DNA from: Octopus vulgaris
Lineage: Eukaryota
DNA length: 64,000 nt
Direction: 5' to 3'
Assembly: GCA_951406725.2 (NCBI GenBank)
Contig: OX597818.1
Location: forward strand, 37,634,001 to 37,698,000
Shown: positions 951 to 53,040 of the stretch, piece after piece
How the letters are laid out: each line of letters begins with the position of its first letter
How positions within the stretch are numbered: the first letter of the stretch is position 1
Translations under genes and position numbers: made by a program
The notes under the pieces: generated by a model
What the model was told of the DNA's origin: nothing
The model's database searches: none
The model's input: only the letters and a program-made list of their open reading frames with translations

Positions 951-1158
951 AGTTAATCCAATAGTGAAAACACAAAGAGAAAACACAACAACGCGAGGAC
1001 GTGGAGCAAGAATAGTGTTATTGAACGCTCAGGAAAGGAAAGAAAGTAGGAGGATTTAACGTTTCGAGCGGAGCTCTTCGTCAGAAACTTAGAAAAAGGA
1101 AAGGTCCAAGGAAGGGAAGACGGAGGAAGAAAATCGCCAACGATACACACGCAGTCAC
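951..1158 (-). mobile_element. HHR family A module (Penelope pLTR-like, non-autonomous)
   Basis: Related copies at about 7400-7590 (+), 7591-7748 (-) and 51501-51680 (-); 3' end abuts (TA)n/(CATA)n; contains an HHR. Confidence 0.75.
1054..1088 (-). ncRNA. minimal type I hammerhead ribozyme, family A
   Basis: Minus strand gttt-CTGACGA-a-gagc(tcc)gctc-GAAA-cgtt-aaat; palindromic ACGU stem III; GUU cleavage triplet. Confidence 0.8.
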
Positions 1159-1278
1159 ATACATATATACAGAGTACATACATACATGCATACATACATA
1201 GTACATACATACATACATGCATACATACATACATACATACATACATACATACATACATACATACATACATACATAAAT

Positions 1279-1406
1279 CGGCGTAGGAGTGGCTGTGTGG
1301 TAAGAAACTTGCGCGGCACCTTGGGCAAGTGTCTTCTACTATAGCCTCGGGCTGACCAAAGCCTTGTGAATGGATTTGATAGACGAAAACTGAAAGAAGC
1401 CCGTCC
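1279..1406 (+). mobile_element. SINE family S2 (tRNA head, CORE-like), partial
   Basis: ggagtggctgtgtggtaag...gcaccttgggcaagtgtcttc shared with many copies in the window. Confidence 0.8.
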
Positions 1407-1487
1407 TATATATATATATATATATATATATATATATATATATATATATATATATATATATATATATGGGTGGGGTATTTGTGTGTC

Positions 1488-1583
1488 TGTGCACCGTTTC
1501 TCTTCTTTATCCCAAATCATTATATCAGGTCTGTTGTGTTTACATTTTATTGAGGCTTTCACTGGGACATTCCACCAATAGTA
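1488..1583 (-). mobile_element. R4/Dong-like non-LTR retrotransposon fragment (restriction-like endonuclease domain)
   Basis: Translates [32 protein letters not shown]; the HNRPD motif is typical of RLE domains; embedded in microsatellites. Confidence 0.7.
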
Positions 1584-2129
1584 TGTATGCATGTATGTAT
1601 GTATGTATGTATGTATGTATGGATGGATGGATGGATGGATGGATGGATGGATGGATGGATGGATGGATGGATGGATGGATGGATGGATGGACGGACGGAC
1701 GGACGGACGGACGGATGTTCTTTTCTGTTATTAATTATTTGAAATCTTGTAAGAGAGGAATTGGTTTCGAACAGAGATTTCAAAGCGCCATCTTTGGAAT
1801 ATAGATAACAAGAACAATGTCACATTTTGCATATTTTTGCTGTTCTACCGAAAGATAATGCTTGTAATGTTAGGTGTGGGGGGAGGGGTTGCTTGGGTTT
1901 TTTTTTTTGTCTTTTCTCTCCTCTAAAAAATCCACAATTTTCCAAATTGTCATTTGGGGATTTACTCACAAAACCAAATGCGCTGTTATTGATATAAACG
2001 TGCGTTTTTAACCTGGGTTTAGAACCTGGAAATTGCGGTGCAGTTGTCCATTGTTATCCTTTTACTCTTTTGCCGAAATGCTAAGTTACGGGGACGTAAA
2101 CACACGAACATCGGTTGTCAAGCGACGGT

Positions 2130-48866: not shown

Positions 48867-51325
48867 CAGTGGTTCTGAACCTGTTCGCTACCACGCCTCT
48901 CCTAGGAATTTGTCCTTCTCTCCACTTGCATCAATGAATAAAATTCCCTCCTAGATTTTAAAATAAAATCTAAAATATGTTTTTTAAAATAAAATCTAAA
49001 ATATGTTTTTAGTCACATCATACAAAATATGTATAATTTTATATATAATCTATTTTACAAAAAGTGAGATACTTGACACTGCTTCTTAGCAAAAAATAAC
49101 ATTTTTTTTATTGAATACGAATTAGTCACATTATTAGTGAGATACTTGATACTGCTTCTTAGCGACAAGATATTGAATGCGTGGCTGAATGCCAGAGAGT
49201 GCACAACGTAAGCCCCTTTCAACGTTTAGCCTGCTTCTGTCCTTGGTCTAGACATCAGCAAGCGTGGAAAGTGCAGCTTCACAAAGATACGTGGATCCAA
49301 ACATAGTTAAAACCCTAAGAGCCTGATGTGAAATCAGAGGGTAAACAGGAAGGTACTTGATCCAGAACGTTTCAAGTCCAGTTGTTTGAAGTCTCCCTTA
49401 GCTGGGAAGTTGAACTTCAGCTCAAGAAACTCTGTTTCCACTTCACCCAAAACATCAGTCACTTCACACTGAAATGCGTTCCTGATGAATTTCCAAGCTT
49501 CATGCTTTTCATCTACATTTGGGAAGTATCTGATGAATTCTGTTTTCAAGTCAGTTAAATGAGTGATTATTTGTTTCTTTAACTCAGAATCAAGGTTACC
49601 GTGAATGAGAACAGAATCCAAATAACTAAAACTGGTTATATTTCCCTGCTGAATTCGACATTTCCAAAGGTCGAGTTTGGCCATGAAGGTTCGAATGGTG
49701 TCGTGGTGTGTGAGAATGTTGATATTTTCCCCTTGTAGTTTAAAGTCGAGAGCATTCAATGCTTCGACGATGTCCACCAGGTAAGCTAGAGACAGATGAA
49801 AGCCTTCAGACTGGAACTTGTCATGGAGATCTGCCTTCTGCTGCAAATCTAGAAATATTGCTACTTCCTCTCATAGTTCATAAAGCTGTCCAAACATGTT
49901 CCCCTTTGATAGTCATCGTGCGTTTGTGTGAAAAAGCAATGTTTCATGTTCAGATTCCATATCTTTACAAAACAGTTTGAAAAGACGACTGTTTAAGGGT
50001 CCACCTTTAACAAAGTTGACAACCTTGAAAGCCACGTTCAAGACTTTTCTCATTTCAGGAGGTAAGGTTCTGATTGCTAAGGCTTCACGATGAAGTATGC
50101 AGTGTGTACTTACAACAGATGGATTTGTTTCTTTCACCCTAGTAATGAATGCAGACTGCAGACCAAGTATGGCTGGAGCTCCCTCAGTGCACATCCCTAC
50201 CAGCAAATCCCATGAAAGTTGGTCTTCCTGAAAGAAGTTTGATACATCACGAATAATAGCTGCTGCTGTTGTAAAACTATCCATAAAGTGACAGAACAAT
50301 ATTTCCTCTTTTACACAATTGCCTGACACAAAACGAGCATATACCAGCAGCTGAGAACACTGGGCGGTGTCAGTCGTTTCGTCACACTGAATGGCAAAAA
50401 CAGGAGAATCTCTTGGTCGAGAATTTGATCTTTGATGTCTTGGGACAAGCCGTCGATATCGTTTGACAGTGAAATCTGGGAAAGCTTGTTTGCATTATCC
50501 TTTCCCAGAACGAGTTCTGCTGCACGGAGTAGACTTAGTTTTATGAGAGACTCTCCGATGTTATGGCTCTTCTTGCTCTTTGCAATCAACATGGCGATCT
50601 CATAGGAAGCTTCAACAACCATTGGAGTTTGTTGCCGAAATTCCCCGCTACCGTCCACCTTAGCTTGCTTCAAGGAATGTTTTTTTTTTTGTTTCAAAGA
50701 ATGCCTTGTGTTTGTATGCAAGAGCAGGATGTGTTGTCTTCAAGTGCTGCTCCAAGCGTGAGGGTCGCACTCCATCATTTCTCAAAGTTTTGTAACATAT
50801 CACGCACTGGGGGAGTTCTGTGTCACCCTTATGGAGGGACACGAATCCAAATCGAATATATTCGTCAAGATACTTCCATTTCTTTGCACTCATTGCAAAT
50901 TATTTGATATGCAGTGGACAGCACACAATTGTAAACAAGGGATAAGACACGTGTAAGGTAAGGTCAAGGCCCGAGTTCTGAAAAAAAAATTAAAACAAAA
51001 AAATGTGGAATAAAAGTTAAATTAAAAGAAAAGTTATACGAAAAATTTGTACAATAAAATATCGCATTAATTTGTATGAAAATATAAAAAAAGTTTCTTT
51101 AAAAAGACAAGAATAGGTTTGAATAAGATTGTTTAGCGCCATTTCAGAGTGAAGTGATAATATTAGCGTATTATTGCCGGACTTTTGTAGCCAGCAGCAA
51201 GCGATAATGAAAGTAATGTAGCAATTTATAAAATTATCTCCACTGAATTTAAAATTAACTTTTAATTACATGTTGCTTTCATAGCTTATTCCACAGCTAC
51301 TTGCTCGTTGATTTGGGACTATAAC
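48867..51325 (-). mobile_element. hAT (Buster/Charlie-type) DNA transposon
   Basis: Terminus cagtggttctgaac at 48867 preceded by atctacag (NNNTANNN target pattern); the other end was not found, so the right boundary is approximate. Confidence 0.75.
49134..50893 (-). pseudogene. frameshifted hAT/Buster (ZBED5/SCAND3-like) transposase
   Basis: BED finger PQCVIC..HLKTTH, SLSND, CDETTD, CTEGAPA, THCILHREAL, LAYLVDI, GSTYLCEAA, ending QYQVSH*; split over at least 5 frame segments. Confidence 0.9.
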
Positions 51326-51601
51326 ATTATATATATATATATATATATATATATATATATATATATATATATATATATATATATATATATACAGAGAGAG
51401 AGAGAGAGAGTGTGTAAATAACATAAATCCAAAAGAAGAAGCACACTCTAATATGTACTGTAAAAAACATTAAAATTATATATATATATATATATATATA
51501 AAGTTAATCCAAACCTGAAAACACAGAGAAAACACAACAACGCGAGGACGTGGAACAAATATAGTATTATTTGACGCTCAGGAAAGAAGGAAAGAAGGAG
51601 G

Positions 51602-51636
51602 GTTTAACGTTTCGAGCGGAGGTCTTCGTCGGAAAC
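51602..51636 (-). ncRNA. minimal hammerhead ribozyme, family A (CCGACGA; stem II mismatch)
   Basis: gttt-CCGACGA-a-gacc(tcc)gctc-GAAA-cgtt-aaac. Confidence 0.65.
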
Positions 51637-52395
51637 ATAGAAGGAAAGATCCAGAGAAGGGAAGACAGAGGGAAAACACACACACACACACACACACACA
51701 CACACACATCTCGCGCATTTTTGTCTGTCTCCTCTCCCATTTTTTTCTCCTGTCAAAGCTTGTTCCTCCAGCGTTCGTCACCTCACCTCGTTATGGCTTA
51801 GTAGCCCTTACTGTTTATACTGATTGCGTTGACTGTCCTGTTTTTGTTACCAGCTTTGACCCTCTGCAATTCCCAAATTTTATTTTGCTTTGCGGGAACA
51901 ATTGTCTTCTCGAAGACACGTCTTGTCGTAATTGCTCAAAATGTGGAGTAGATAAACAGCCGACAACTGATGAAGGGTCGTTCTTTATGTTACTTGACTT
52001 GTTTTCCATTTGTTTCTGTCGTTGTTCGCAAAATAGTTCGTGTTTCATGTTGTTTACGTTTTATGACGTCCTGTGCCAATATATGCATATGTGTATACAT
52101 ATATATGCAAGTATGTACATATATGTATGTACATATGCATATATATATTATTCATATTATTATATGATTGAACTCCACGCATCCATTTCCAAATAAGTTT
52201 ATCTATCTATCTATCTATCTATCTATCTATCTATCTATCTGTCTGTCTGTCTGTCTGTCTGTCTGTCTGTCTATCTATCTATCTCCCCCCTCTCTCTCTC
52301 TCTCTCTCTCTCTCTCTCTATCTATATATATATATATATATATATATATATATATATATATATATATATATATATATATATATATATATATATAT

Positions 52396-53040
52396 TAAAT
52401 TAGAGATAAAACCACTATTAGGCAAATCAAACAGTGAAAAACATAAACCAAAACATAGAAATAAAATAGATTAATATAATATAATATACAAAATATATAA
52501 AATATAAAATTCAAAATTTAAATTATTTAAAGTTAAAATTTAAAAAAAATTTTTAATTATTAATTTATCTTATATTAAACTTTTTAATACTTTTTGATAG
52601 TTATATATTTAAAATAAAAAAATAAATAAACAAATAAATATATAATAAAAAAATAAAAAAATAAAAATAAAAATAATAAAAAATAAAAATAATAATAAAA
52701 TATATATATATATATATATATATATATATATATATATATATATATATATTTATATATATATATAAATTTATAAGTATAAATTAATAATTTAAAATTTTTT
52801 TTTAATTTTAACTTTAAATTTAGATAATTTAAATTTTGAATTTTATATTTTATATATTTTATATATTATATTAATTAATTTTATTTCTATGTTTTGGTTT
52901 ATGTTTTTCTCTGTTTGATTTTCCTAATAGTGGTTTTATCTCTAATTTAATATATAAATATATATATTTATACTGTAAAATTAGATTTAATCCTAAATCT
53001 AATTTTTCCCTGTAAGTTTGGATTTACTCCCTAATATTAT
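52396..53040. mobile_element. family C-related inverted module without an HHR
   Basis: aattagagataaaaccactatt.../...aatagtggttttatctctaatt; AT-rich centre; (TA)n flanks. Confidence 0.7.

Follow-up and report, generated by a model that had tools for sequence, protein, structure and literature searches.

Minimal hammerhead ribozymes (min-HHRs) were defined in the pseudo-long terminal repeats (pLTRs) of metazoan Penelope-like elements (PLEs), where their activity is low and dependent on dimers (Cervera and De la Pena 2014, PMC4209133). The same work describes several families per genome, with pairs of motifs on opposite strands 100–700 bp apart that are mostly read as truncated PLEs. Here we analyse 64,000 nucleotides of Octopus vulgaris DNA (GenBank assembly GCA_951406725.2, contig OX597818.1, positions 37,634,001 to 37,698,000; hereafter the window), which hold four families of non-coding modules, A to D, with type I hammerhead motifs, and a single-copy module, element E, in which the hammerhead blocks follow a different order. 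Families A–D are likely the 5′-truncated 3′ ends (pLTRs) of PLEs, and E is likely the decayed tail of a relative of the PLEs known as Naiads, carrying a rearranged hammerhead.

Non-LTR retrozymes are defined by tandem units and derive from pLTRs (Li et al. 2026, 10.64898/2026.07.22.740005). Naiads have been reported to lack a canonical hammerhead, eight of them being marked ‘HHR_half_core’, and the same source asks, as an open question, what maintains weak, dimer-dependent hammerheads in PLEs and how Naiads prosper in their absence (Craig et al. 2021, PMC8557442). Non-circular hammerheads, named for the order of cleavage site (S), GAAA block (G) and CUGANGA block (C), have been validated for the SGC and CSG types, the former reported from metatranscriptomes and the latter from metagenomes, and none from the genome of a known organism (Eckert et al. 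2023, PMC10085705). For cephalopods, the covered part of the published min-HHR alignment contains no row (PMC4209133), a 2026 repeat annotation of Octopus vulgaris gives 31 recently active Penelope-like families with hammerheads unmentioned in the sections covered (PMC13282606), and the giant squid genome has 235 Hammerhead_1 matches (PMC6962438).

Type I hammerhead motifs in families A to D

A sequence-only reading of the window had listed 11 type I motifs in four families. All 11 are present, about 40 nt or less from where it placed them (100 nt for D); motif coordinates below are those of C3 of the core, with the strand as + or −. The core reads CTGANGA in nine motifs and CCGACGA in two copies of family A (7451, 51632). 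Stem III, which had been described as self-complementary, is so in 10 of the 11, giving the short palindromic helix III expected of PLE minimal type I hammerheads, and fails at B 9430 (AAGT). The families do share only the core: apart from simple repeats, BLAST aligned no family with another.

A strict type I descriptor (helix I at least 3, helix II at least 4, palindromic or hairpin helix III, UH) matched the window six times: at five of the 11 motifs (A 1084, A 7672, both C motifs and D) and at 15678, an unlisted match that was treated as chance. Block-wise dinucleotide shuffles, 100 per setting, gave a mean of 0.03–0.06 matches and a maximum of 1, so that 0 of 100 reached the observed 5–6. 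The six non-intact motifs (A 7451, A 51632 and the four of family B) have defects in stems, core or cleavage site, and a density first put at about one hammerhead per 6 kb falls to about one per 13 kb when only intact motifs are counted. The Rfam search that had been suggested as a check was run and returned 102 window matches at E ≤ 1, all below the gathering score and none of them a hammerhead.

D is the strongest single motif. It is a single copy between two (TA)n tracts (21450–21782, −; intact type I motif, C3 21669, predicted cut after 21579), with a helix I of 8 bp, a 12-nt stem III and a helix II extended by a 19-bp hairpin that includes five G-U pairs. On the motif strand the extended helix has a folding energy of −34.9 kcal/mol (z −5.1), vs −20.7 (z −2.3) on the opposite strand. 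Beside D lies a 240-bp single-copy module (21182–21422), also between (TA)n tracts, with GAAA near its end and no descriptor match.

Family C is represented by a head-to-head pair with two intact motifs. Arm C1 (28780–29032, −; C3 28993, predicted cut after 28959) carries a tail of about 70 nt, and arm C2 (29160–29325, +; C3 29196, predicted cut after 29230) has no tail and ends in (TA)n. The two arms show no difference over 174 aligned positions, as a single event predicts, and enclose a 127-bp spacer (29033–29159) identical to 31119–31245, a stretch of single-copy-depth DNA that is its likely source. The minus strand of the spacer holds a stretch bounded by AG...GT, a candidate host exon. 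Further along, 52396–53040 is an inverted pair of C-related 3′ ends with a tail on the right arm only and without a hammerhead.

Contigs of four sequencing runs were compared with 28450–29586 at 85% likeness; 20 of the 24 listed runs contain part of 28200–31300, and none is recorded as RNA. One contig of run X7 matches 28979–29159 without difference, bridging the left spacer junction (54 + 127 letters) before it departs from the window, while a contig of X1 stops at 29159 and a contig of X3 shows the source locus only. The right junction is bridged by no listed contig, and no empty-site allele is listed. Depth over the C hammerhead bin was approximately 1.5 × 10^3 (X1), 1.2 × 10^4 (X3) and 5 × 10^4 (X7) times that of the flank, with a steep 5′-ward fall. 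No difference of at least 10% is listed in the C core or stems, a comparison of little power since few positions vary.

These results bear on the possibility that the pairs are foldback or MITE-like (miniature inverted-repeat transposable element) inverted repeats, or assembly artefacts, with cores that arose by chance. Such an origin would fit the lack of an Rfam hammerhead and the unbridged right C junction, yet it is already largely refuted and we hold it to be very improbable: no shuffle reaches the observed motif count, the paired arms are unequal in length and differ by up to 12%, the G-U-containing helix of D is more stable on the motif strand than on the other, and the X7 contig crosses the left C junction without difference.

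Family A has four copies. A1 (951–1150, −) has an intact minimal type I motif (C3 1084, predicted cut after 1058) and a 3′ end at (CATA)n/TATA. A2 (7270–7580, +; 5′ boundary approximate) belongs to a diverged subfamily and has C3 at 7451, U4C, one stem I mismatch and a short (TA)n end. A3 (7591–7750, −) is intact (C3 7672, predicted cut after 7646) and lacks the last ~45 nt found in A1 and A4, and A4 (51502–51676, −; C3 51632) has U4C, one helix II mismatch and a (TA)n end. The U4C change is common to the copies at 7451 and 51632, which belong to different subfamilies. In an alignment of the four copies, 28 of 31 columns are invariant within the motif and 51 of 101 outside it, where the columns include the poorly aligned part of A2. 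A2 and A3 run towards each other into a short (TA)n, with 75% identity across 97 nt; this low identity and the tail-to-tail arrangement speak against a single inversion event, and the two are therefore probably separate insertions.

Family B comprises two pairs. B1 (9220–9385, −; no tail; C3 9314, mismatch at pair 10.1–11.1) and B2 (9386–9544, +; with tail; C3 9430, stem III palindrome broken) lie between the two copies of a 15-bp target-site duplication (TSD; 9205–9219 and 9545–9559, +). B3 (29404–29673, −; with a tail including (ATT)n; C3 29531, cleavage-site deletion) is joined to B4 (29674–29853, +; no tail; C3 29764, stem I deletion). None of the four window copies has an intact motif. 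The consensus of loose contig ends at 29498 restores the bases missing from the window copy and with them an intact cleavage site and stem I, so that most B copies have both intact. The core changes listed for B are of CpG type, G12 to A making up 7–16% of depth in all four runs; no difference of at least 10% is listed at the CUGANGA block, again with little power, few positions varying so much.

Summed depth over B in X1 was 1.5–6.6 million vs 53 on the single-copy flank, and the ratio in X3 and X7 was similar or higher. At ~3 × 10^4–3 × 10^5 times the flank, a depth that is no copy number and is read only as ‘of order 10^4–10^5’, family B may be extremely abundant. Hundreds of contigs in three DNA-like runs define two discrete 3′ ends, at 29404 and at 29437–29440, with 204–247 contigs per DNA run leaving B at the first and 138–191 per listed row at the second. 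Run X15 was only guessed to be RNA, and its family B contigs were not taken as expression. In B4, a B-box-like motif lies 5′ of (AAT)n (29674–29702), a possible tRNA-derived head.

Family B, and perhaps D, could instead be a discrete element resembling a short interspersed nuclear element (SINE), with a pol III head, an (AAT)n spacer and a PLE-derived hammerhead 3′ end, copied in trans by PLE protein; this could hold for B while A and C stay truncated ends. We regard it as unlikely. Depth is high across the 180 bp compared, loose contig ends run on into (ATT)n, B4 begins with the B-box-like motif (29678) and a second such motif occurs in all four copies, yet ARAGORN predicted 0 tRNA genes and Rfam gave no tRNA match at E ≤ 1 in the window, the head fragment amounts to 29 nt at one locus, and a PLE with a long non-coding 3′ end would give the same picture. 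Octopus records are known in which the B4 head fragment extends into a tRNA-like head.

Insertion anatomy and a probable link to Penelope-like elements

The pairs share an asymmetry. In all four head-to-head pairs (B1/B2, B3/B4, C1/C2 and 52396–53040) the tail, ~33 nt in B and ~70 nt in C, is present on one arm only, and arm identities are 174/174 (C), 151/155 (52396–53040), and 114/123 and 106/120 (B). Target sequences are (TA)n at A, C and D and the 15-bp TSD at B1/B2, with none clear at B3/B4. The motifs had been described as often forming inverted pairs: three pairs (two of B, one of C) are indeed head-to-head, whereas A 7451/7672 is tail-to-tail. Seven of the 11 motifs (A, C and D) end at (TA)n or (CATA)n, as had been proposed for most, and the four B motifs do not clearly do so. 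We infer that the 11 motifs reduce to about eight insertion events.

Head-to-head arms, the one-sided tail, the TSD, the two 3′ ends and the motif type together support the proposed link to PLEs. As in published PLE insertions, pLTRs lie head-to-head with an optional tail on one arm, a TSD and a bias for (TA)n (Arkhipova et al. 2013, PMC3846280; PMC8557442). Captured unrelated DNA between solo pLTRs is likewise common to the C insertion and published PLEs (PMC3846280, PMC8557442); the C tail is ~70 nt rather than 30–40, and the captured piece has a source 2 kb off. The motifs also resemble min-HHRs in their type I topology, palindromic helix III, several unrelated families and occurrence singly or as opposite-strand pairs (PMC4209133). 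A and B match the published pattern in having an extra nucleotide after A9, a G10.1–C11.1 pair, a helix I of 4–5 bp and the palindromic helix III. Unlike those min-HHRs, C and D close helix II with U-A or A-U, two A copies carry U4C, D has the long G-U-rich helix II extension, and the families have no parent open reading frame (ORF) in the window; the published alignment also contains a few U-A rows (PMC4209133). Families A–D resemble PLE min-HHR tails and are new members of an established class; on their own they extend a familiar pattern by one lineage. Searched as exact sequences, the A and B motifs had 0 matches in metagenome, GTDB and viral contigs, six window motifs had no occurrence in the literature searched, and four A–D motifs are absent from the covered part of the Craig supplement (PMC8557442).

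The sequence-only reading had further called the modules non-autonomous and retrozyme-like, a description that is not borne out here. Only B hints at a discrete non-autonomous element. That they are non-LTR retrozymes, spreading via small circular RNAs from tandem hammerheads, we consider improbable. The modules resemble retrozymes in being small and non-coding, with a type I hammerhead and a PLE connection (PMC7229834; Li et al. 2026), dispersed monomers derived from PLE pLTRs are known (10.64898/2026.07.22.740005), and tandem arrays elsewhere could cause the ~30-fold variation of C depth among runs. However, none of the 88 tandem-repeat rows of the window contains a hammerhead, and paired motifs lie on opposite strands, therefore offering no dimer partners within one transcript. 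There are no tandem units and no same-strand pair in the window, and the motifs are minimal and non-canonical; A and B belong to the minimal type, which is linked to PLEs, and not to the canonical type found in retrozymes (PMC7229834). The tails and inverted arms are, moreover, marks of PLE integration.

As PLE ends, the modules could have formed as follows. A parent encoding a reverse transcriptase (RT) and a GIY-YIG endonuclease would nick (TA)n or AT-rich DNA, and target-primed reverse transcription would start at either of two 3′ ends, including or skipping the 33–70-nt tail. After an early stop in synthesis, a template switch or self-priming would attach another arm in inverted, head-to-head orientation. 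For C, this switch would have run through host DNA 2 kb away, giving the 127-bp spacer; the exact local copy between identical arms would then preserve a template switch from PLE integration. The ribozymes would serve the RNA of the parents and are predicted to cut there. In A, B and C, the short palindromic helix III would form between two motifs on the same strand, allowing dimer cleavage, while in D and E helix III would suffice to fold alone. Genomic copies would subsequently decay, CpG changes striking the core. In read-through RNA, the two opposite-strand arms of a pair would anneal to each other as one long hairpin with the motif buried inside, and most genomic copies are probably inert, dead on arrival.

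Element E carries hammerhead blocks in rearranged order

Element E, which was absent from the first list of motifs, is a single-copy module (51709–52078, +; boundaries approximate) that ends in an AT-rich tract. Its hammerhead blocks (51917–51978, +) follow the order cleavage site, GAAA block, CUGANGA block, that of type SGC. The stem III strand and C17 occupy 51917–51922, with the predicted cut after 51922; the stem I strands are 51923–51928 and 51961–51966, the G block is at 51938 and CTGATGA at 51967–51973, all on the + strand. Stem I has 6 bp, stem II 4 bp (two G-U) and stem III 5 bp (one G-U). The core has one change, G12 to A following C (CpG), a change common to E and other copies of family B. 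As G12 is catalytically essential, this copy of E is probably dead. With an SGC descriptor that was set after E had been seen, the G12 change being allowed post hoc, E was the sole match in the window, and any match occurred in 1 of 300 shuffled windows. The position of GAAA between the stem I strands led us to drop a type II reading. A match in CSG order spanning 316 nt (49482–49798), inside a hAT remnant, was treated as chance.

Upstream of the blocks, 51857–51863 offers a 7-bp partner for the strand after A9, followed by a 6-bp hairpin (51864–51895) and by a partner for the strand before the G block that pairs at six of 7 bp (51896–51902). The 5′ strand of helix II in E may lie upstream, with an added helix. 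A search for other copies of E via its translations gave six candidates, none significant, two weak unrelated matches and no look-alikes. E differs from the SGC ribozymes of Eckert et al. (PMC10085705) in being genomic, in lying in a retroelement-like tail, in the changed G12 and in its competing upstream partners for helix II.

Several observations weigh against reading A–D as PLE ends and E as a Naiad-like tail. PLE protein motifs had 0 matches in six frames of the window, and a Pfam search of 95 of the 149 stop-to-stop ORFs of at least 75 amino acids, low-complexity ones being omitted, found no RT or GIY-YIG domain; with no PLE ORF in the window, we therefore infer the parents, and no family is tied to one. 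A clear non-microsatellite TSD occurs in one of nine modules tested (B1/B2). Rfam gives no hammerhead in the window, covariation could not be shown within any family, C and D lack both the G10.1–C11.1 pair and the extra nucleotide, and the C monomer folds no better than shuffles (z 0.34). The B motif is not extra-conserved, with 32 of 41 positions invariant inside vs 74 of 100 outside, and B depth remains high up to the 5′-most bin (3.4 vs 6.6 million in X1), instead of falling off steeply as truncation would predict. For E there is a single, damaged copy and a descriptor set post hoc; the overall fold of E is not unusual against shuffles (z −1.26), and of three E motifs none occurs in the covered part of the published Naiad consensus file (PMC8557442).

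S-G-C order in metagenomes and Naiads

A gapped S-G-C pattern with the stem III of E matched 11 viral and at least 121 metagenome loci, 17 of 64 metagenome parts being scanned. Among these 132 matches, an 8-bp stem I is present in three and a 6-bp stem I in one; cross-pairing controls for the 132 matches expect 0.05 with at least 8 bp and 0.53 with at least 6 bp. Stem I was outside the search pattern and was found nonetheless, which indicates that the S-G-C order occurs in nature in DNA. The 8-bp cases are L041 (527–622, −) and L049, where two motifs (60–140 and 1181–1261, +) lie in a direct repeat 1121 bp apart; the 6-bp case is L065 (20–125, +). All are in eukaryote-looking metagenome DNA. 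A stem II with the strand after A9 is found in L049 only (3 bp). The pattern of upstream partners seen in E occurs at all three of these loci, yet also in 49 of 128 controls. No RT ORF was evident beside the motifs on these short contigs, with translations judged by eye, and Rfam found no hammerhead in L041, L049 or L065.

We also read by eye 14 of the 54 Naiad 3′ ends in File S5 of PMC8557442, mostly over their last 600 nt and without a shuffle control, naming records by their order in the metadata. Six of the 14 have complete non-circular hammerheads, four CSG and two SGC. The CSG motifs, with stems I/II/III in bp, are those of Naiad_Parc (6/5/12), Naiad-3_Nbra (5/4/6), Naiad_Hpol (5/5/9) and Naiad_Smim (6/5/6). 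The SGC motifs, in Naiad-Ppla (8/3/7) and Naiad_Sdum (8/3/6; U3-A8 core), have a long, helix-closed S-G linker. Partial S-G-C motifs with a stem I of 6 bp, a stem III of 5 bp and a weak stem II were seen in Naiad_Ovul, Naiad_Obim and Naiad_Esco, and no motif was resolved by eye in Naiad_Omin, Naiad-3_Dst, Naiad_CGi, Naiad_Mmer or Naiad_Adux. Element E resembles the Naiads (PMC8557442) in its (TA)n preference and in the S-G-C order, 6-bp stem I and 5-bp stem III that the Octopus and Euprymna Naiad ends show by eye; it differs from them in being non-coding and in sharing no exact motif.

On balance, these comparisons favour the view that Naiads carry CSG or SGC hammerheads with a full helix III, predicted to cut as monomers, and that E descends from such a tail as a genomic copy now decayed. 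In cephalopods the motif may include an additional helix between A9 and G10.1. The rearranged motif order points to a likely reason why Naiads were thought to lack a ribozyme. In the literature searched, which covered few subscription papers, we found no paper joining non-circular hammerheads to PLEs. If true, self-cleavage would be near universal in endonuclease-bearing PLEs, the CSG and SGC classes would gain a genomic home and an evolutionary route, and pseudoknotted ribozymes would move from environmental sequence into animal genomes, in tens of thousands of copies.

Other repeats in the window

The window is 36% GC and dense in microsatellites and dispersed repeats, with remnants of mariner and hAT elements. 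The hAT-like transposase (49337–50899, −) is broken and weakly matches a BED finger, and the mariner remnant (37434–37730, −) is a transposase fragment 63–76% identical to database proteins, the named ones from insects and a whale. An abundant SINE-like dispersed repeat of ~240 bp lies at 5473–5656, 10685–11243, 15334–15582, 22438–22917, 26203–26577, 33583–33879 and elsewhere. A second dispersed family occupies 1310–1405, 13137–13563, 57621–57824, 61107–61512 and 63547–63946, and a further dispersed repeat is found at 8120–8643 and 41011–41529, ~95% identical. At 58719–59182 there is a degenerate GC-rich minisatellite of 17 copies of a 27-bp unit.

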